From Escherichia coli (GTDB lineage: Bacteria > Pseudomonadota > Gammaproteobacteria > Enterobacterales > Enterobacteriaceae): DNA of 64,000 nucleotides. The position numbers were made by a program, and so were the translations under genes. Shown one piece after another: positions 7,267-56,761 of the stretch; positions within the stretch are counted from its first letter, which is position 1; each line of letters begins with the position of its first letter. Location: the NCBI RefSeq assembly GCF_044324785.1, contig NZ_CP172127.1. The stretch is one strand, 5' to 3'. The notes under the pieces were generated by a model. It saw nothing but the letters and a program-made list of their open reading frames with translations. It made no database searches and had not been told where the DNA came from.

Positions 7267-7589
7267 TTTTTTGCACGCCCGTATTCAACGGCTTCTTTAA
7301 GGAGTTCATTTTCCATCGTTTTTTTGCCGAGCAGGCGCTGGAGTTCTTTAATCTGCTTCATGGCAGCAGCAAGTTCAGAGGCAGGAACGACCTGCTCTCC
7401 TGCGGCCACAGCAGTAAGACTTCCCTCCTGGTATTGCTTGCGCCAGAGAAATAACTGGCTGGCTGCCACACCGTGTTGCCGGGCAACAAGGGAGACCGTC
7501 ATTCCCGGTTCAAAACTCTGCTGAACAATAGCGATCTTTTCCTGTGTAGTACGCCGTCTGCGTTTCTCCGGTCCTAAGACATCAATCAT
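7224..7589 (-). CDS. insC: IS2 transposase OrfA (InsC)
   Basis: [56 protein letters not shown]... matches IS2 InsC. Confidence 0.9.
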
Positions 7590-7681
7590 CTGCTCTCCAA
7601 TGACTAGTCTAAAAACTAGTATTAAGACTATCACTTATTTAAGTGATATTGGTTGTCTGGAGATTCAGGGGGCCAGTCTAA

Positions 7682-8499
<818 letters not shown>

Positions 8500-8745
8500 T
8501 AATTACACTGTGGGTTGACGCCGGAAGAATCAGAGAACAGATACCGTTCTTACTGTAAAACGTGGCTAATATTAATTGAGCACTGCAGTGTTCAGAGCAC
8601 AAAGAAGAAAAAAGATGTGTGCGAATGCCTGTAATGTGTTAAAAGAATGTTCCGCGTTTCCGGTACGCTTTTCGTAACTAACAATGCAGGGTGACGTAAC
8701 GCTGGTTGTGCCGGAAACGCGTCCCTCCCCCTATCTTTCCTGTTT

Positions 8746-8765
8746 GGATTTGCCCCTATATTTCT
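8746..8765 (+). repeat. Solo IS2 terminal-repeat fragment
   Basis: TGGATTTGCCCCTATATTTC is identical to the first 20 nt of the IS2 end at 6350; the sequence diverges afterwards. Confidence 0.5.
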
Positions 8766-9108
8766 GGATTATCCGACAAAACCGGCGTGAAGTATTACTC
8801 TCGTCGCCCAGCACCATAAGGATAACGCCCATAAAATCATGAAACTTTTCTTCCAGATTGGATACAATCAGGCCGAAACGGTGATGAATATTATCCAAAT
8901 CTGATGGTTCGTAGCGTTTTCAGCCCCCAGATTCTGAGTTGCCTGTAGGGATGATTTCAATTCCCGATTTGTCTATCGCATAGAGAAAAAGAATTTCATT
9001 TCTGTTCACCAGAACCCATGTAACCCACTCCAATTCGTTATTTATCTCACTGATTGCCCTTCATTTATCTCATTGATGCACCGAAAGGTAAAACTGCCAT
9101 CCGGTGCA

Positions 9109-34977: not shown

Positions 34978-35039
34978 CCCGTCACAACCACATCACACCT
35001 GTTTTCACTTTTATCTTCTGTCTTCAGAGGTATCCCATT

Positions 35040-35261
35040 ATGAAAATCATCACCCGTGGTGAAGCCATGCGTATTCACCAACAGCATCCTGCATCCCGTC
35101 TTTTTCCGTTCTGTACCGGCAAATACCGCTGGCACGGTGGCACTGAAGCGTATACCGGTCGTGAAGTGCAGGATATTCCCGGTGTGCTGGCCGTGTTTGC
35201 AGAACGCCGTAAGGACAGTTTTGGTCCGTATGTCCGGCTGATGAGCGTCACCCTGAACTGA
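35040..35261 (+). CDS. DUF987-family small protein (YeeT/YkfH/YpjJ-like)
   Basis: 73 aa; conserved slot between the radC-like gene and the TA pair. Confidence 0.6.
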   Translation: MKIITRGEAMRIHQQHPASRLFPFCTGKYRWHGGTEAYTGREVQDIPGVLAVFAERRKDSFGPYVRLMSVTLN

Positions 35262-35275
35262 GTCAGGGCATTCTG

Positions 35276-35920
35276 ATGAGCAGAATTATCACCATCACAG
35301 TGTATACGCTGGATGAACTTTCCTGCCCGGCACGGGAAAAAGCCCGCGACGGGTACCGTCAGCATCATGCTGACAGCAGCTGGTATGAAAACGTGTATGA
35401 GGACTTCAGGGCGGTCTGTGACATTGTCGGGATTGCCCTCCGCCAGCGAGTTATCCGGCTCAGCAGCGGCAGGTTTATGGAAGAGCCGTGCATCTGGTTC
35501 AGCGGCTTCAGCAGCCAGGGGGACGGAGCCTGTTTTGACGGGCGCTGGCACTGGCAGCCGGCAACAGCCAGGAAAATCCGGGAATATGCCCCGCAGGACC
35601 GTGAGCTTCATCGTATCGCGGATGCCCTGCAGGCGGTGCAGAAGCGTAACTTCCGGCAGCTTCAGGCTGAAATCCGCCACCGGGGACGCTACTGCCATCC
35701 GTACAGCATGGATATCACCGTCACCCGGGACAGTCCGACTGGTCAGGCTATGACAGCCGATGCGGAAGCCGCTGTCAGCGAAGCCCTGCGCGACCTGGCC
35801 TTCTGGCTGTACCGTCAACTGGAAAACGAGTACGACCAGATGACCTCAGACGCCGCTGTGGATGAGGCCATTCTCATCAATGCATACATCTTCACCGAAA
35901 CCGGTCAGCGCACCGGCTGA
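35276..35920 (+). CDS. Hypothetical protein (214 aa) in the variable slot between the DUF987 gene and cbeA
   Basis: ORF with consistent coding composition; no motif recognised; the overlapping antisense ORF 35075..35818 is rejected. Confidence 0.5.
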   Translation: MSRIITITVYTLDELSCPAREKARDGYRQHHADSSWYENVYEDFRAVCDIVGIALRQRVIRLSSGRFMEEPCIWFSGFSSQGDGACFDGRWHWQPATARKIREYAPQDRELHRIADALQAVQKRNFRQLQAEIRHRGRYCHPYSMDITVTRDSPTGQAMTADAEAAVSEALRDLAFWLYRQLENEYDQMTSDAAVDEAILINAYIFTETGQRTG

Positions 35921-35969
35921 CCTGTCATCGTTAAACCATTCTTAACCACTTTTCAGAGAGGATTTTATC

Positions 35970-36338
35970 GTGTCAGACACACTCTCCGGGATAACTCATC
36001 CCGACGACAATCACGACCGCCCCTGGTGGGGGCTTCCCTGCACAGTGAGGCCCTGTTTTGGCGCCCGTCTGGTGCAGGAGGGTAACCGGTTGCATTACCT
36101 TGCCGACCGCGCCGGCATCAGAGGCCGGTTCAGCGATGCGGATGCATACCATCTGGACCAGGCCTTTCCGCTGCTGATGAAACAACTGGAACTCATGCTC
36201 ACCAGCGGTGAACTGAATCCCCGCCATCAGCATACCGTCACGCTGTATGCAAAAGGGCTGACCTGCGAAGCCGACACCCTCGGCAGTTGTGGTTACGTTT
36301 ATCTGGCTGTTTATCCGACGCCCGAAACGAAAAAGTAA
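35970..36338 (+). CDS. cbeA: CbeA/YeeU/YfjZ-family type IV antitoxin
   Basis: MSDTLSGITHPDDNHDRPWWGLPCTVRPCFGARLVQEGNRLHYLADRAGIRGRF...YVYLAVYPTPE matches the family. Confidence 0.8.
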   Translation: MSDTLSGITHPDDNHDRPWWGLPCTVRPCFGARLVQEGNRLHYLADRAGIRGRFSDADAYHLDQAFPLLMKQLELMLTSGELNPRHQHTVTLYAKGLTCEADTLGSCGYVYLAVYPTPETKK

Positions 36339-36428
36339 ACCACCGGAATAACCTTCTGCTCCGGCCAGGTGTTTTCACCACGCCACTCTCCCCATAATTT
36401 AATCTCTCATATCAGGAAAATCTTCAGT

Positions 36429-36839
36429 ATGAAATTATTACCCGACACACATGTACGGGAGGCATCGTGCTGCCCGTCTCCCGTCACCATCTGGCAGACA
36501 CTGCTCATCCGTCTGCTGGACCAGCACTATGGCCTCACACTGAATGACACACCGTTCGCTGATGAACGTGTGATTGAGCAGCATATTGAGGCCGGCATTT
36601 CACTGTGCGATGCGGTGAACTTTCTCGTTGAAAAATACGCACTGGTACGTACCGACCAGCCGGGATTCAGCGCAGGAGCCCCGTCGCAGTTAATCAACAG
36701 CATCGATATTCTCCGGGCCCGCCGGGCAACAGGCCTGATGACACGTAATAACTACAGAATGGTAAATAACATTACCCTGGGTAGCATCCGGGGGCGAAAC
36801 GATGAAACTTTCCCTGACGCTGGAAGCCGACAGCGTTAA
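36429..36839 (+). CDS. cbtA: CbtA/YeeV/YpjF-family toxin (cytoskeleton-binding toxin)
   Basis: ...[67 protein letters not shown]...[16 protein letters not shown] matches the CbtA family; start set at MKLLPDTH. Confidence 0.75.
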
Positions 36840-37227
36840 CGTACAGGCGCTGAACATGGGGCGAATTGTCGTTGACATTGATGGTGTTGAGCTCACTGAA
36901 CTGATTAACAAGGTCGCTGAAAACGGTTATTCACTCCGCGTGGTGGATGAACGTGACGCTACCGAAACACCGGCGACTTCTGCCAGCTCTCATCAGTTGC
37001 CGGAAGACAATACAGTGATACAGAGCGTGATGCCATTAACCACTGAAACAGCGCTGGATATCCTCATTGCGTGGCTGCAGGACAATATCGACTGCGGGTC
37101 CGGAATTATTTTCGACAACGATGAGGATAAAACGGATTCGGCAGCACTGCTGCCCTGTATCGAACAGGCCAGAGCAGATATCCGCACCCTGCGCCAGCTG
37201 CAGCAGCTTCTGCAACAGAACCGGTGA
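36802..37227 (+). CDS. YeeW-like hypothetical protein
   Basis: 141-aa ORF in the slot occupied by yeeW downstream of cbtA in CP4-44 (recalled); overlaps the cbtA 3' end. Confidence 0.45.
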
Positions 37228-37323
37228 GTCTTACTCATCATCTCACTCACCAGACTTCATTCCACTGACACCAGCCTGAACAGGGCTGGCGTTTTCATTT
37301 ATCTGCAAAAAGGAATATCGATT

Positions 37324-38190
37324 ATGTCTAAAATCACAGTCTCCCGTCCGGAAGTGGTCAACGGGCATACGGACGTTATCTGTTCCACCTCAATCTGCCA
37401 CATTCTGGCTGTACGAAAGAATACACTGCTGCAAATCGACACACTTATCCGGCAACTGGCTGAAATCTCGGTGCTGACGGAAAGCATCGGAGGTAAAACT
37501 GCCCCGGACTGGGCCATGAAACAGGATTTTCGCTGCGGATGCTGGCTCATGGAGAAACCTGAAACGGCAATGAAAGCCATTACCCGGAATCTTGACCGCG
37601 AAATCTGGCGTGACCTGATGCAACGTTCAGGGATGCTTTCCTTAATGGATGCACAGGCCCGTGATACATGGTACCGATCACTGGAATACGATAATTTTCC
37701 GGAAATCAGTGAAGCGAACATTCTGAGCACATTTGAACAACTGCACCAGAATAAGGATGAGGTGTTTGAGCGAGGGGTGATCAACGTCTTCAGGGGACTG
37801 AGCTGGAATTACAAAACCAATTGCCCCTGCAAATTTGGCAGTAAAATTATCGTCAACAACCTGGTGAGGTGGGACCGGTGGGGGTTTCATCTGAACAACG
37901 GCCCACAGGCCGATCGACTTGCCGATCTGGAAAGAATGCTGCACCTGTTCAGCGGCAAACCGATCCCCGACAACCGGGAAAACATCACCATTCATCTGGA
38001 TGATCACATCCAGTCTGTTCAGGGTAAAGAGGACTATGAAGATGAGATGTTCAGCATCAGATACTTTAAGAAGGGCTCCGCGCACATCACGTTCAGGAAA
38101 CCAGAGCTGGTTGACAGGCTTAATGATATTATTGCCAGACACTACCCGGAAGCCCTGGCAAGCACAGTGAACAAAAGCCGCAAGGCATAA
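37324..38190 (+). CDS. Hypothetical protein (288 aa), conserved-looking island protein of unknown function
   Basis: Long ORF with the GGAATATCGATTATG start context; no catalytic motif recognised. Confidence 0.5.
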   Translation: MSKITVSRPEVVNGHTDVICSTSICHILAVRKNTLLQIDTLIRQLAEISVLTESIGGKTAPDWAMKQDFRCGCWLMEKPETAMKAITRNLDREIWRDLMQRSGMLSLMDAQARDTWYRSLEYDNFPEISEANILSTFEQLHQNKDEVFERGVINVFRGLSWNYKTNCPCKFGSKIIVNNLVRWDRWGFHLNNGPQADRLADLERMLHLFSGKPIPDNRENITIHLDDHIQSVQGKEDYEDEMFSIRYFKKGSAHITFRKPELVDRLNDIIARHYPEALASTVNKSRKA

Positions 38191-38261
38191 AAGAGGTATT
38201 TTACAATTCGCGAATATTAACTATTATTAATTGATAGTAATCAATCGGCGAGAAAATAACC

Positions 38262-38525
38262 ATGCCTACCAGTGTATCCCTCAGTCCTTACTTTGAAACG
38301 TTTATCCGCGAACAAATAGAAAGTGGTCGGTACAACAATACAAGTGAAGTCATTCGTGCCGGACTTCGTGCGCTGGAAGAACGGGAACAGCAGATAAAGC
38401 TTGAATCACTCCAGAGCGCCGTGACCGCAGGCATCAACAGCGGTGAAAGTAAAAGTGCTGAAGAGGTATTCGGGCGACTGACGCACAAATACAAAAAGAT
38501 GGCAGAAGGTGAACAGCCAATATGA
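38262..38525 (+). CDS. parD: ParD-family type II antitoxin (ribbon-helix-helix)
   Basis: 87 aa; ...SEVIRAGLRALEEREQQIKLESLQSAVTAGINSGES... typical of ParD; stop overlaps the toxin start (ATGA at 38522). Confidence 0.75.
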   Translation: MPTSVSLSPYFETFIREQIESGRYNNTSEVIRAGLRALEEREQQIKLESLQSAVTAGINSGESKSAEEVFGRLTHKYKKMAEGEQPI

Positions 38526-38848
38526 AACTGACTGTTTCACCATTAGCAGAACACGATCTTGAAGCTATAGGTGACTGGATCGCTCAGGATAATCCTGTCC
38601 GTGCAATCAGTTTTACCGAAGAGCTTTACCAACAATGTCTGTTGATAGCCGAATCGCCAGTACTCTACAGAGAAAGACCCGAGTTAGGGGCTGGGATCAG
38701 AGGTTGTTCGTATGGTCGTTACCTTCTGCTGTTCAGGGTACTGGATACTGAAGTTCGTATCGAACGTATCGTTCATGGTTCCCGGGATATCAACAGGGTA
38801 CTTGCAGAGCCAGACGACAAACCATCAGATCATTTCTGGCAGCCATAA
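38522..38848 (+). CDS. parE: ParE/RelE-family type II toxin
   Basis: 108 aa, ...LLLFRVLDTEVRIERIVHGSRD... ParE-like; translationally coupled to parD. Confidence 0.75.
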   Translation: MKLTVSPLAEHDLEAIGDWIAQDNPVRAISFTEELYQQCLLIAESPVLYRERPELGAGIRGCSYGRYLLLFRVLDTEVRIERIVHGSRDINRVLAEPDDKPSDHFWQP

Positions 38849-39095
38849 ACAAAATCTGTGCGTTAACGCTCCCTAACACAGGTAGCCAGGTATTTTATAA
38901 ATCTCTGTATTTTGTTGTCACTTCGATTCCGCGATTCAGCATATCGAACCAGATAAAATGATTACAACAAACCACAAGAAAGAGGGATTATAGCGTCAAA
39001 AGAATTCGAATTGCACATGGGGGCCTCATTGGTGGCCTCAAAAATAACAAACACAAAACAATCAATATAAAACAACTTGTTATACAACCAGTTTC

Positions 39096-39114
39096 ATTCC
39101 GAGTCCGGGCACCA
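39096..39114 (+). repeat. 19-nt direct repeat of the tRNA-Phe 3' end (attR-like island boundary)
   Basis: ATTCCGAGTCCGGGCACCA equals the 3' terminal 19 nt of E. coli tRNA-Phe (pheU/pheV) as recalled; upstream sequence does not fold as a tRNA; followed by the tRNA-type terminator. Confidence 0.7.
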
Positions 39115-39126
39115 AATTCATATAAA

Positions 39127-39151
39127 CGGACCTCCACGGAGGTCCGTTTTT
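39127..39151 (+). terminator. Intrinsic terminator (native pheU-downstream type)
   Basis: CGGACCTCC-ac-GGAGGTCCG followed by TTTTT. Confidence 0.6.
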
Positions 39152-39730
39152 CGTTTCAGGACGCCACAATTTAAGCGTTCTGCCTAAAAATCATTTCTAC
39201 CGAACTCAACCAGATTCTCCCCACATCACCAGCAATTTGCGGGCATATCCCAATTCGGGGAAATGTGTTCCTGAGCTATAGCACTGACTGACGTGAAATG
39301 TCGTGCGGCCCCGTGATGCTGTTGAACGTCAAATGACGTCATCAGGAGCGTAACGCATCCATAAAGCACAACATCGGGCAGAACGCCGACTGATAAGATT
39401 TTCTGAATGAGAACAAAGAGAAATGTATCAGTCCGCTTGCTCATGCAAAGACTAACAATCCATTAAAATAGTAAGCGCTCCGGGCAATTTTCCATGGATT
39501 ATTTTCTGAACATTTTTCTTTGGCAAAGATGATGAATTTTGATGGTAAGGAATATTACTTCTGGTTCTCAGTAAAATCCTTTCGTAATACTATGTGATCA
39601 AGAAGTTTATGGCTGGTAAAAATAACGTCTTGCATTCACCAATAATATGTAAATAAACCCATCTATAGATGGTAAAAATAGGTTGTGGCAATTATCATTG
39701 CATCATTCCCTTTTCGAATGAGTTTCTATT

Positions 39731-41269
39731 ATGCAACAACCTGTAGTTCGCGTTGGCGAATGGCTTGTTACTCCGTCCATAAACCAAATTAGCCGCAATG
39801 GGCGTCAACTTACCCTTGAGCCGAGATTAATCGATCTTCTGGTTTTCTTTGCTCAACACAGTGGCGAAGTACTTAGCAGGGATGAACTTATCGATAATGT
39901 CTGGAAGAGAAGTATTGTCACCAATCACGTTGTGACGCAGAGTATCTCAGAACTACGTAAGTCATTAAAAGATAATGATGAAGATAGTCCTGTCTATATC
40001 GCTACTGTACCAAAGCGCGGCTATAAATTAATGGTGCCGGTTATCTGGTACAGCGAAGAAGAGGGAGAGGAAATAATGCTATCTTCGCCTCCCCCTATAC
40101 CAGAGGCGGTTCCTGACACAGCTTCTCCCTCCCACAGTCTTAACATTCAAAACACCGCAACACCACCTGAACAATCCCCTGTTAAAAGCAAACGATTCAC
40201 TACCTTTTGGGTATGGTTTTTTTTCCTGTTGTCGTTAGGTATCTGTGTAGCACTGGTAGCGTTTTCAAGTCTTGATACACGTCTTCCTATGAGCAAATCG
40301 CGTATTTTGCTCAATCCACGCGATATTGACATTAATATGGTTAATAAGAGTTGTAACAGCTGGAGTTCTCCGTATCAGCTCTCTTACGCGATAGGCGTGG
40401 GTGATTTGGTGGCGACATCACTTAACACCTTCTCCACCTTTATGGTGCATGACAAAATCAACTACAACATTGATGAACCGAGCAGTTCCGGTAAAACATT
40501 ATCTATTGCGTTTGTTAATCAGCGCCAATACCGTGCTCAACAATGCTTTATGTCGGTAAAATTGGTAGACAATGCAGATGGTTCAACCATGCTGGATAAA
40601 CGTTATGTCATCACTAACGGTAATCAGCTGGCGATTCAAAATGATTTACTCCAGAGTTTATCAAAAGCGTTAAACCAACCATGGCCACAACGAATGCAGG
40701 AGATGCTCCAGCAAATTTTGCCGCATCGTGGTGCGTTATTAACTAATTTTTATCAGGCACATGATTATTTACTGCATGGTGATGATAAATCATTGGATCG
40801 TGCCAGTGAATTATTAGGTGAGATTGTTCAATCATCCCCAGAATTTACCTACGCGAGAGCAGAAAAAGCATTAGTTGATATCGTGCGCCATTCTCAACAT
40901 CCTTTAGCCGAAAAACAATTAGCAGCACTGAACACAGAAATAGATAACATTGTTACACTGCCGGAATTGAACAACCTGTCCATTATATATCAAATAAAAG
41001 CGGTCAGTGCCCTGGTAAAAGGTAAAACAGATGAGTCTTATCAGGCGATAAATACTGGCATTGATCTTGAAATGTCCTGGCTAAATTATGTGTTGCTTGG
41101 CAAGGTTTATGAAATGAAGGGGATGAACCGGGAAGCAGCTGATGCATATCTCACCGCCTTTAATTTACGCCCAGGGGCAAACACCCTTTACTGGATTGAA
41201 AATGGTATATTCCAGACTTCTGTTCCTTATGTTGTACCTTATCTCGACAAATTTCTCGCTTCAGAATAA
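39731..41269 (+). CDS. cadC: CadC, membrane-integrated ToxR-like activator of cadBA
   Basis: 512 aa, MQQPVVRVGEWLVTPSINQISRNGRQLTLEPRLIDLLVFF...; single TM segment (FTTFWVWFFFLLSLGICVALVAF); matches K-12 CadC. Confidence 0.95.
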   Translation: MQQPVVRVGEWLVTPSINQISRNGRQLTLEPRLIDLLVFFAQHSGEVLSRDELIDNVWKRSIVTNHVVTQSISELRKSLKDNDEDSPVYIATVPKRGYKLMVPVIWYSEEEGEEIMLSSPPPIPEAVPDTASPSHSLNIQNTATPPEQSPVKSKRFTTFWVWFFFLLSLGICVALVAFSSLDTRLPMSKSRILLNPRDIDINMVNKSCNSWSSPYQLSYAIGVGDLVATSLNTFSTFMVHDKINYNIDEPSSSGKTLSIAFVNQRQYRAQQCFMSVKLVDNADGSTMLDKRYVITNGNQLAIQNDLLQSLSKALNQPWPQRMQEMLQQILPHRGALLTNFYQAHDYLLHGDDKSLDRASELLGEIVQSSPEFTYARAEKALVDIVRHSQHPLAEKQLAALNTEIDNIVTLPELNNLSIIYQIKAVSALVKGKTDESYQAINTGIDLEMSWLNYVLLGKVYEMKGMNREAADAYLTAFNLRPGANTLYWIENGIFQTSVPYVVPYLDKFLASE

Positions 41270-48584: not shown

Positions 48585-48758
48585 CTAAAAGAGAGAAAAA
48601 AGTAATGCCACAGGCAGACTCATTGGCCAGGTTATTCCTACCAGGAATGCACTAAGTAAACGAATATGTGTTTTCTCATGTGAGATAAACCAGATAATGA
48701 CAAAGGATATGTTCACACCAATCACATAAAAAATTAATATTTTAGAGAATAGTGCCAT
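48585..48758 (-). CDS. ghoT: GhoT type V toxin (small membrane-lytic peptide), 57 aa, below the ORF-track size cut-off
   Basis: Minus-strand translation MALFSKILIFYVIGVNISFVIIWFISHEKTHIRLLSAFLVGITWPMSLPVALLFSLF*; two hydrophobic helices; immediately downstream of ghoS. Confidence 0.8.
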   Translation of the reverse strand: MALFSKILIFYVIGVNISFVIIWFISHEKTHIRLLSAFLVGITWPMSLPVALLFSLF

Positions 48759-48785
48759 TTTTTATGTTCTTCTTATCCTTCCTGG

Positions 48786-49082
48786 CTACTTGTAAAACTG
48801 ACGGAAATAGTCATCAACTGTCATAATGTTGAGGTCAAAGTCAATATCCGGTAAGTCTAAGCATTTAAGCCTGATTAAATCTTCGATTTCACTTGCGGCT
48901 AATGATGTCGTTATTGCGAAGGAATTTTCATTCAATTGTCGTGGTATCCCATATTCATCAGCCACGATAGAGGAGAAATTCATATCATGCATCAATGATC
49001 TTAACCTTAAGAACACTGAGGAATAAGATGATGGATAATCAAAAGAAACAACATAAGTATTGAACTTGTTTTTACCTTCCAT
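48786..49082 (-). CDS. ghoS: GhoS type V antitoxin (sequence-specific endoribonuclease; YjdK)
   Basis: 98 aa MEGKNKFNTYVVSFDYPSSYSSVFLRLRSLMHDMNFSSIVADEYGIPRQLNENSFAITTSL... matches GhoS as recalled. Confidence 0.85.
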   Translation of the reverse strand: MEGKNKFNTYVVSFDYPSSYSSVFLRLRSLMHDMNFSSIVADEYGIPRQLNENSFAITTSLAASEIEDLIRLKCLDLPDIDFDLNIMTVDDYFRQFYK

Positions 49083-56110: not shown

Positions 56111-56761
56111 ATGACCCGCACACTCAAGCCGTTAATTCTTAACACCGGCGCACTGGCGCTAACGTTAATCCTGATTTATACCGGCATTTCGGCCCATGAC
56201 AAACTCACCTGGCTGATGGAAGTGACACCGGTGATTATTGTCGTGCCGCTACTGCTTGCCACCGCCAGACGTTATCCGTTAACGCCGCTGCTCTATACGC
56301 TCATTTTCTTTCACGCCATCATCCTGATGGTCGGCGGACAATACACCTACGCGAAAGTCCCCGTTGGTTTTGAGGTGCAGGAATGGCTGGGGTTGAGTCG
56401 TAATCCGTATGACAAGCTGGGGCACTTTTTCCAGGGGCTGGTGCCTGCACTGGTGGCACGAGAAATTCTCGTTCGCGGGATGTACGTGCGCGGACGTAAA
56501 ATGGTGGCGTTCCTGGTCTGCTGCGTGGCGCTGGCGATAAGCGCGATGTATGAATTAATCGAGTGGTGGGCGGCGCTGGCAATGGGCCAGGGAGCGGATG
56601 ATTTTCTCGGCACCCAGGGCGACCAGTGGGACACGCAATCCGATATGTTCTGCGCGCTGCTTGGCGCATTAACGACGGTGATATTCCTCGCTCGCTTTCA
56701 TTGCCGCCAGCTACGGCGCTTTGGCTTAATCACCAGAGCGCCGGAAGCGATTACCCCTTAA
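56111..56761 (+). CDS. yjdF: YjdF inner-membrane protein (DUF2238)
   Basis: 216-aa hydrophobic ORF, MTRTLKPLILNTGALALTLILIYTGISAHDK...; the true start may lie upstream; the stop overlaps the melA stop. Confidence 0.8.
   Translation: MTRTLKPLILNTGALALTLILIYTGISAHDKLTWLMEVTPVIIVVPLLLATARRYPLTPLLYTLIFFHAIILMVGGQYTYAKVPVGFEVQEWLGLSRNPYDKLGHFFQGLVPALVAREILVRGMYVRGRKMVAFLVCCVALAISAMYELIEWWAALAMGQGADDFLGTQGDQWDTQSDMFCALLGALTTVIFLARFHCRQLRRFGLITRAPEAITP

Follow-up and report, generated by a model that had tools for sequence, protein, structure and literature searches.

Two toxin-antitoxin gene pairs at the attR end of a pheU-type, P4-like island of Escherichia coli, one with a widespread frameshifted cbtA allele

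The genomic island end described here carries two toxin-antitoxin (TA) pairs, one of which has a toxin longer than most of its relatives. This raises the question of whether both pairs are likely to work, and whether they could hold the island in its host. The window (the whole stretch of 64,000 nt of E. coli contig NZ_CP172127.1 that was analysed) supplies all coordinates, and features lie on its plus strand unless stated. Taken as one whole, the account preferred below, with two TA pairs on the arm of a pheU-type, P4-like island and cbtA as an active allele, is very likely to be right. The locus itself is an ordinary one, representing known biology; it does not alter the current understanding of TA systems, and its value is chiefly one of annotation.

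The region is best explained as the standard right arm of a P4-like (CP4-type) island that has integrated at the tRNA-Phe gene pheU. The order of the arm is yeeS/radC, yeeT/DUF987, an ORF of 214 aa, cbeA, cbtA, DUF5983/DUF957 and DUF4942, followed by an optional cassette carrying parDE and then by attR. The attR site (39096–39114) repeats the 3' end of pheU without mismatch over 19 nt, ATTCCGAGTCCGGGCACCA; extended to 39091, it matches at 22 of 24 nt. By alignment, near-identity to the K-12 pheU-cadC spacer starts at attR and continues to cadC, and this core DNA includes the intrinsic terminator of pheU (39124–39149), located by K-12 alignment and a consensus scan. No intact tRNA gene is found anywhere in the window. 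The left end of the island is beyond window position 1, and the window does not reach its integrase and attL.

A first-pass annotation of this DNA had proposed a type IV CbeA/CbtA and a type II ParD/ParE module beside attR. Both assignments hold up, as the four genes match their Pfam families in a profile search, all far above the cut-offs and far beyond chance, and both pairs are at the attR end, with 247 nt between the parE stop and attR. Such a setting has precedents. Homologues of CbtA in K-12 are found “near the prophage attachment sites” of P4-like prophages (PMC5371832), and an arm with yeeU/yeeV has been reported for islands at pheU, pheV and selC (PMC6174562). These STEC islands share with the window the pheU site and an arm of yeeP-yeeS-yeeT-yeeU-yeeV, DUF957 and Z1226, whereas neither ParD nor ParE has any occurrence in that paper; in the window, the parDE cassette is added before attR.

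The antitoxin gene cbeA (yeeU family, 35970–36338) has a GTG start, encodes 122 aa, and lies directly upstream of the toxin gene, with 90 nt between its end and cbtA. CbeA matches CbeA_antitoxin (PF06154) with E=7.8e-55 (184.1 bits, cut-off 27), and its residues 1–121, essentially the whole length, match the solved YeeU structure 2H28 (E=6.6e-77). The exact protein is present on 997 contigs. The toxin gene cbtA (yeeV family, 36429–36839) is a frameshifted allele of 136 aa. Its product matches CbtA_toxin (PF06755) over model positions 1–112 of 112 (E=1.6e-59, 199.2 bits, cut-off 25), and this domain, residues 1–112 of the protein, is intact. A structure search by sequence returned no solved relative of CbtA. 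Residue F65, which contacts FtsZ (PMC5624674), is invariant in alignments of 6 and of 32 sequences, the window protein included.

The closest well-studied counterpart is CbeA/CbtA (YeeU/YeeV) of the K-12 element CP4-44, which has the same order of radC-like gene, DUF987, antitoxin, toxin and yeeW/DUF5983, and likewise adjoins the attachment site of its element. The two CbtA proteins are 83% identical and F65 is conserved, but residue 15 is Arg in K-12 and Cys in the window, as it is in YpjF and YkfI. The latter belong to the paralogous pairs of K-12, YafW/YkfI (CP4-6) and YfjZ/YpjF (CP4-57). Relative to CP4-44, the window has the extra 214-aa ORF between DUF987 and cbeA, and downstream of its toxin gene a shortened DUF5983 is fused to DUF957. 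If the mechanism worked out in K-12 carries over, CbtA would bind FtsZ and MreB, and CbeA would counteract it not through contact with CbtA but by bundling the FtsZ and MreB polymers.

CbtA had been described in the first-pass annotation as about 12 aa longer at its C-terminus than the family norm and as overlapping the next ORF. The length difference is real: read from the ATG at 36429, the protein has 136 aa, whereas that of K-12 has 124 aa and most relatives have 125 aa. The overlap is real too and comes to 38 nt (cbtA stop at 36837–36839, next start at 36802). The protein is not, however, a naturally longer variant. The alignment with DNA of strain SFE8 has a one-column gap at window position 36783, where one A is missing and codon 119 changes from AAG to AG, indicating that the apparent extension is a one-base (-1) frameshift and not a new domain. 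The canonical last seven residues (KHPGAKR) are replaced by 18 out-of-frame residues (119–136, encoded at 36783–36839), a tail that comes from the DUF5983 gene downstream, read in the alternative frame. Adding one base in silico yields a CbtA of 125 aa that ends in the canonical ATGA overlap, while the same deletion simulated in SFE8 yields 136 aa and the same kind of tail. The window gene thus departs from the canonical frame, which runs to a normal stop at 124–126 aa with an ATGA overlap. Technically, the last seven codons show the disruption on alignment that the earlier reading had named as evidence against it, but the departure is confined to residues beyond the Pfam domain and the conserved part is untouched. 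An identical allele in strain GF60 is labelled a “frameshifted” pseudogene in the NCBI/RefSeq (PGAP) annotation.

The 136-aa CbtA is a known, common and widespread allele. The exact protein is found on at least 999 contigs (1586 index blocks) and in several island contexts, with loci beside gsp, kps or cadC and two copies in one genome, and 7 of the 8 loci displayed retain a CbeA gene call of the full 122 aa. The alternative frame is reached through at least four junctions in all: LG/SIRGRN (the window, P0078 and P0081; the slash marks the shift), ITR/VNIRGRN (P0094), LGKHPG/RNNE (P0095, E. fergusonii) and GKYSGG/PDET (P0175, Salmonella). Programmed frameshifting was set aside, given that the site has no slippery heptamer and the alleles shift at different positions. 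An error of sequencing or assembly in this genome might be suspected from a length difference of a single base in a short run of AA. Nevertheless, the change from AA to A does not involve a long homopolymer, and the exact product recurs in many independent assemblies, complete genomes among them. Because the allele is so prevalent, sequencing error is rejected; an artefact has next to no probability and is effectively refuted.

Whether the allele is alive is a different matter, and here the sequence evidence suggests that the 136-aa CbtA is probably still an active toxin. Activity is the most likely state, since the frame changes only after the conserved domain, and the K-12 paralogues YkfI (113 aa) and YpjF (109 aa), both of which are toxic (PMC5624674, PMC5371832), stop before residue 118 in the alignment, that is, ahead of the shift. 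In addition, a His6-CbtA-GFP protein, fused at the C-terminus, is toxic (PMC5624674). In an AlphaFold2 model, residues 119–136 lack secondary structure and have pLDDT values under 50, which is weak evidence for a disordered tail because the confidence of the model, built from the 32-sequence alignment, is low overall (mean pLDDT 62.7, pTM 0.42). The opposite reading, in which the tail destabilises or inactivates the toxin, cbeA is an orphan and ParDE is the only working pair of the island, can draw on the PGAP call, on the degraded state of the neighbouring DUF5983 gene, which would suit a decaying arm, and on some loci with the allele in which the 214-aa ORF is disrupted or DUF4942 is truncated. 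It is nonetheless improbable: the replacement affects no more than the final 7 of 125 residues, F65 and the complete Pfam domain are preserved, natural paralogues are toxic without this segment, a C-terminal GFP fusion stays toxic, and the allele persists without further disruption on all those contigs. The RefSeq pseudogene flag probably understates the function of the allele, given that the replaced part is just a tail that is not conserved.

A bolder view would make the 136-aa products selected, functional variants and the stop-start junction of cbtA and DUF5983 a recurrent frameshift hotspot, such that the tail, or the lost ATGA coupling, tunes toxin dosage, stability or activity, or expression of the operon, or uncouples the translation of the gene downstream. 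The repeated entry into the same alternative frame, the occurrence of the LG/SIRGRN type of junction on backgrounds that are 87–100% identical, and the replacement of ATGA coupling by the 38-nt overlap all point in that direction. If it were true, a pseudogene call would be hiding a functional toxin isoform carried by considerably more than a thousand assemblies of E. coli. Recurrence is, however, also expected under neutrality, with an unconstrained tail and a median of 3 (up to 13) copies of the region per E. coli genome. The alternative frame is open for 38 nt simply since it overlaps the conserved N-terminus of DUF5983, gene conversion among paralogues would account for shared junctions, and a slippery heptamer is lacking. 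Moreover, the representatives inspected comprise 58 with the canonical tail pattern and 8 with the alternative-frame tail (the other 55 mostly have near-canonical tails or are truncated or partial sequences). Selection on the tail is accordingly a very doubtful proposition, and the preferred reading remains that of a probably active toxin with a shifted, non-conserved end.

Between cbtA and parDE there are two further genes. A fusion ORF of 141 aa (36802–37227) joins the N-terminal domain of DUF5983 in frame to DUF957; residues 4–57 match PF25638 with E=7.8e-30. A deletion of about 281 nt has removed the C-terminal part of DUF5983; the alignment with 1517k shows it as two gaps, one of 197 nt and one of 84 nt, near 36957–36978, and the equivalent region is annotated by PGAP as a partial DUF5983 plus DUF957. 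A terminator-like hairpin (37271–37289, from a consensus scan only) is present in the gap that follows. The last backbone gene of the arm encodes a DUF4942 protein of 288 aa (37324–38190; PF13708, E=4.8e-69), which also matches phrog_6263, a DNA methyltransferase family, with E=5.5e-20. It appears in the literature under the name “Z1226 methyltransferase”. Other searches add little: PHROGs gives just families of unknown function or generic antitoxin and methyltransferase labels, NCBIfam has no matching model for CbeA, CbtA, DUF5983 or DUF4942, and an Rfam scan of 32–41 kb at E up to 0.1 has no match, and so offers no evidence for an RNA antitoxin or small RNA there.

The type II pair is intact and translationally coupled, with parD (38262–38525, 87 aa) upstream of parE (38522–38848, 108 aa) and a 4-nt ATGA overlap. 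ParD, a ribbon-helix-helix (RHH) antitoxin, matches ParD_antitoxin PF03693 (E=3.9e-17, 62.9 bits, cut-off 21), TIGR02606 (96.9 bits, cut-off 46.2) and the PDB ParD entries 7B22 and 3KXE (E about 1e-10); at least 1000 contigs encode exactly this protein. ParE matches ParE_toxin PF05016 (E=7.9e-18, 65.3 bits, cut-off 23) and the PDB ParE entries 6X0A (E=2.8e-13) and 3KXE (E=4e-4). The RelE/StbE mRNA interferase model TIGR02385 was considered and rejected, its score of 24.3 bits being below the cut-off of 27.9, and all six PDB matches of ParE are ParE or “plasmid stabilization” proteins, not RelE. The same arrangement, an RHH ParD upstream and a 4-nt overlap, is seen in Caulobacter ParDE1 (3KXE), Mesorhizobium (6X0A), Vibrio ParD2 (7B22/7R5A) and RK2. 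Both Pfam families are shared with the solved proteins and the whole domain is aligned, although the relation is distant (best E=1e-13). Upstream of parD there is a sigma-70-like promoter (TTTACA, 16-nt spacer, TATTAT; 38200–38227) that rests on 10 of 12 consensus matches only, and a palindrome from a consensus scan (38201–38220) overlaps it. Together these are a putative promoter/operator autoregulated by ParD, the operator role being suggested by the RHH family of the protein. The presumed roles are poisoning of gyrase for ParE and, for ParD, neutralisation of ParE and repression of the operon. Gyrase is not a certain target, because ParE2 of E. coli O157 is reported not to inhibit it, according to the passage of PMC8706911 that cites that work.

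The parDE genes are part of a variable end cassette of 0.94 kb (38152–39092), which some island ends lack although they are homologous in other respects. Homology to the ends lacking ParDE stops at 38137–38151 and resumes at 39093, so that the cassette takes in the final 13 codons of DUF4942, the parDE genes and a spacer of 244 nt. At a coverage of at least 80%, 471 of the 5426 complete E. coli genomes (about 9%) carry it, and 1179 of its 1181 places are chromosomal. A recent plasmid source was not upheld; the nearest plasmid copies, in Salmonella and Pantoea, are just 73–76% identical in DNA, and parDE of the window represents a lineage specific to E. coli islands. As a discrete, optional unit between DUF4942 and attR, the cassette is a clean target for island-stability experiments.

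The position of both pairs next to attR had been read in the first-pass annotation as consistent with stabilisation (addiction) of the island. For ParDE this is plausible by analogy, as the position of these genes, last before attR, would suit them to act against cells that lose the island once excised. A good precedent is ParESO/CopASO, which maintains the excised circular form of CP4So, a P4-like prophage of Shewanella oneidensis (PMC8706911). It is likewise a ParE-family toxin module on a P4-like integrative element, but its antitoxin is of the CopA type, whereas that of the window is a ParD/RHH protein of the CC2985 family. The case for addiction by CbeA/CbtA is weak. In K-12 homologues of this pair, the antitoxins can be deleted, autoregulation is lacking and expression is low (PMC5371832), and for these reasons it fits classical addiction poorly. 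It may even be that neither pair stabilises the island, and that they serve phage defence, stress tolerance or persistence, or are selfish cargo. The deletable antitoxins would suit this, as would the effect of a triple-toxin deletion on the oxidative-stress response of K-12 (PMC5371832) and the optional nature of the parDE cassette among otherwise similar islands. We regard it as rather unlikely, since PADLOC defence models have no match among the seven proteins searched, while the place of parDE last before attR and the Shewanella precedent both fit maintenance of the element; stabilising and other roles are also not mutually exclusive.

With the core ghoS/ghoT locus the window has three TA systems of three types, as had been noted earlier. 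This type V pair lies on the minus strand, with ghoS (98 aa) at 49082–48786 and ghoT (57 aa) at 48758–48585, in a conserved core context; the DNA of the locus is 98.1% identical to K-12. Neither ORF is disrupted, and compared with K-12 the GhoT protein is unchanged, while GhoS differs by one substitution, Y32H.

The genes at the right end of the island, called by ORF listing and assigned to families by Pfam and NCBIfam profile searches, all lie on the plus strand. They are cbeA (35970–36338, 122 aa; PF06154, E=7.8e-55), cbtA (36429–36839, 136 aa; PF06755, E=1.6e-59, whole model 1–112), an ORF containing DUF5983_N (36802–37227, 141 aa; PF25638), a DUF4942 gene (37324–38190, 288 aa; PF13708), parD (38262–38525, 87 aa; PF03693, and TIGR02606 with 96.9 bits against a cut-off of 46.2) and parE (38522–38848, 108 aa; PF05016, E=7.9e-18). 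These ORFs and profile matches bear out the two toxin-antitoxin (TA) modules, cbeA/cbtA and parD/parE, that the first-pass annotation had placed here. The solved YeeU structure 2H28 aligns with CbeA from end to end (E=6.6e-77). On the 5' side of cbeA are a DUF932 gene, an antirestriction gene, radC/yeeS-like and DUF987/yeeT-like genes and a 214-aa ORF without a Pfam domain, a set that is a conserved arm of P4-like (CP4-type) islands. The yeeS-yeeV/DUF957/Z1226 arm has already been described for pheU, pheV and selC islands (PMC6174562), and CbeA/CbtA homologues are known to lie “near the prophage attachment sites” in this island family (PMC5371832); the island-end TA locus is known biology.

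The 214-aa ORF (35276–35920), between DUF987 and cbeA, has no match in Pfam, NCBIfam or PADLOC, its sole match being phrog_5162, where no function is assigned. PGAP names it ‘antitoxin of toxin-antitoxin stability system’ in E. coli strain GF60 and ‘hypothetical protein’ in strain SFE8; the antitoxin name finds no support in the Pfam, NCBIfam, PADLOC or PHROGs searches. It is broken into 86-aa and 56-aa pieces in several loci with the 136-aa CbtA allele. The ORF at 36802–37227 is a DUF5983 N-terminal domain fused in frame to DUF957, with the breakpoint at about 36957–36978. It arose by a deletion of ~281 nt relative to E. coli 1517k, where DUF5983 (162 aa) and DUF957 (65 aa) are separate genes. 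SFE8 and GF60 share the fusion, as do several loci with the 136-aa allele. PADLOC defence models gave zero matches, an Rfam scan of 32–41 kb matched zero families, and the PHROGs search added nothing specific.

CbtA had been noted as longer than its family norm and overlapping the next ORF, and this holds: 136 aa against a norm of 125 (124 in K-12), with a 38-nt overlap. Alignment confirms a C-terminus that differs from its relatives, and shows the longer form to be a one-base frameshift allele. The window protein is canonical through G118 and continues with 18 different residues, while relatives end in KHP(E/G)AK(R/Q), their stop codon overlapping the DUF5983 start codon as ATGA. Compared with SFE8, the nearest relative that spans the whole 5-kb region, the window lacks one base (GGT-AGC vs GGTAAGC). 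Adding one base in silico gives a 125-aa protein; with this A deleted, the SFE8 allele likewise encodes 136 aa and ends in a similar tail. The longer C-terminus is thus due to a -1 frameshift in codon 119: 18 residues stand in place of 7, and translation ends 38 nt inside the following ORF.

The exact 136-aa protein occurs in at least 999 contigs of the protein collection (1586 index blocks) and at varied loci, which rules out an artefact; it is an established allele. Among eight loci listed, its neighbours include gsp and kps genes as well as integrases and cadC; one genome carries it twice, and a 122-aa CbeA is called 5' of it in seven of the loci. The inspected family representatives comprise 58 with the canonical tail pattern, 8 with an alternative-frame tail and 55 others, most of these near-canonical, truncated or partial. 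The eight show at least four distinct junctions, among them LG|SIRGRN (the window allele, P0078 and P0081), ITR|VNIRGRN (P0094), LGKHPG|RNNE (P0095, E. fergusonii) and GKYSGG|PDET (P0175, Salmonella), so independent -1 shifts recur. We read this as neutral tolerance, since nothing constrains the tail, E. coli has multiple copies of the cbtA region (median 3, maximum 13), and the alternative frame owes its 38-nt open stretch solely to overlap with the conserved N-terminus of DUF5983. Rare CbtA proteins of 162–166 aa (P0133 and P0165) are joined in frame to DUF5983_N, so the ATGA junction gives read-through fusions in the other frame too.

Judged from its sequence, the window CbtA is probably still an active toxin. 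The Pfam domain stops at residue 112, before the shift, and in alignment K-12 YkfI (113 aa) and YpjF (109 aa) end short of the shift position; the two are FtsZ-binding toxins (PMC5624674, PMC5371832). His6-CbtA-GFP, with GFP at the C-terminus, is also toxic (PMC5624674). F65, required for the FtsZ interaction, is kept, and residue 15 is Cys, a feature shared with YpjF and YkfI. Overall confidence in the AF2 model is low (mean pLDDT 62.7), and residues 119–136 are below 50 and have no secondary structure. RefSeq labels the identical allele in GF60, whose cbeA-cbtA region matches the window at 99.8% identity over 1261 nt, “TA system toxin CbtA family protein, frameshifted”; that the window cbtA is a true pseudogene nevertheless appears unlikely. 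The oddity is thus a widespread frameshift allele that public annotation already flags.

ParE and ParD align with solved homologues (6X0A, 3KXE, 7B22). ParE scores under the RelE/StbE cut-off of the NCBIfam profile, which places it in the ParE branch. The two genes overlap by ATGA, and consensus matches give a sigma-70-like promoter, overlapped by a palindrome, just 5' of parD. Island ends lacking parDE are homologous to the window up to 38137–38151 (DUF4942 3' end) and again from 39093, which delimits a 0.94-kb cassette. Of 5426 complete E. coli genomes, 471 have it at ≥80% coverage, with a median of one copy per genome; 1179 of the 1181 places lie on chromosomes. The closest plasmid copies (Salmonella, Pantoea) have 73–76% identity.

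Against the K-12 pheU-cadC region, near-identity starts exactly at ATTCCGAGTCCGGGCACCA (39096–39114), the last 19 nt of pheU, after which come the pheU terminator and the integrase remnant yjdQ. Because this copies the pheU 3' end and the 64-kb window has no intact tRNA, it is attR, and the left island end lies beyond position 1; no integrase or attL lies within the 64-kb window. attR lies 247 nt beyond the parE stop. The yjdQ remnant occupies the pheU-cadC spacer at about 39300–39470, as in K-12. In 1517k and the compared locus L016, the parDE-attR end is followed directly, at this position, by a second island together with a full-length tyrosine integrase (positions in relatives: L003 8013–9275; L016 7869–9134), an arrangement of tandem islands at pheU.

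The island end (35000–40000) is a recombinational mosaic. The segment cbeA-cbtA-DUF957 has 99.8% identity to GF60, where it is at another chromosomal site and adjoins glnP instead of cadC; DUF4942-parDE-attR has 99.7% identity to 1517k (the parDE cassette alone, 100%). The best identity for the whole 5 kb among complete E. coli genomes is 94.1%; the core DNA (cadCBA) has 99.3% identity to E. coli genomes. The rest of the island (1–33000) is rich in IS elements. Its cargo, read from the 99.8%-identical GF60 counterpart, comprises an ABC transporter, sodC, a fdrA/DUF1116/carbamate-kinase cluster, a YadA-like adhesin, AlpA and a YeeP-like GTPase.

In K-12, CbtA blocks the function of FtsZ and MreB polymers, and CbeA gives protection by bundling them. 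By analogy, CbtA here would act on FtsZ and MreB, and CbeA would counter it by polymer bundling. ParE is presumably a gyrase poison, and ParD may bind it and repress the putative promoter at 38200–38227. Stabilisation of the excised island by ParDE is plausible by analogy with CP4So, whose maintenance after excision requires ParESO/CopASO (PMC8706911). An addiction role fits the K-12 data on CbeA/CbtA homologues poorly, because these show no autoregulation, low expression and deletable antitoxins (PMC5371832). The original observation is confirmed and its interpretation mostly right.

The count of three TA systems of three types (II, IV and V) was also correct, with ghoS and ghoT intact at 48585–49082 on the minus strand. 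GhoT is identical to K-12, and Y32H is the only change in GhoS (48786–49082, minus strand). Also relative to K-12, melB is missing at 56734–56758: ~1.67 kb from the melA stop to yjdF (L008, a compared locus, 7268–8935) is replaced by 23 nt, and the flanking melA and yjdF have ~98.5% alignment identity to K-12.
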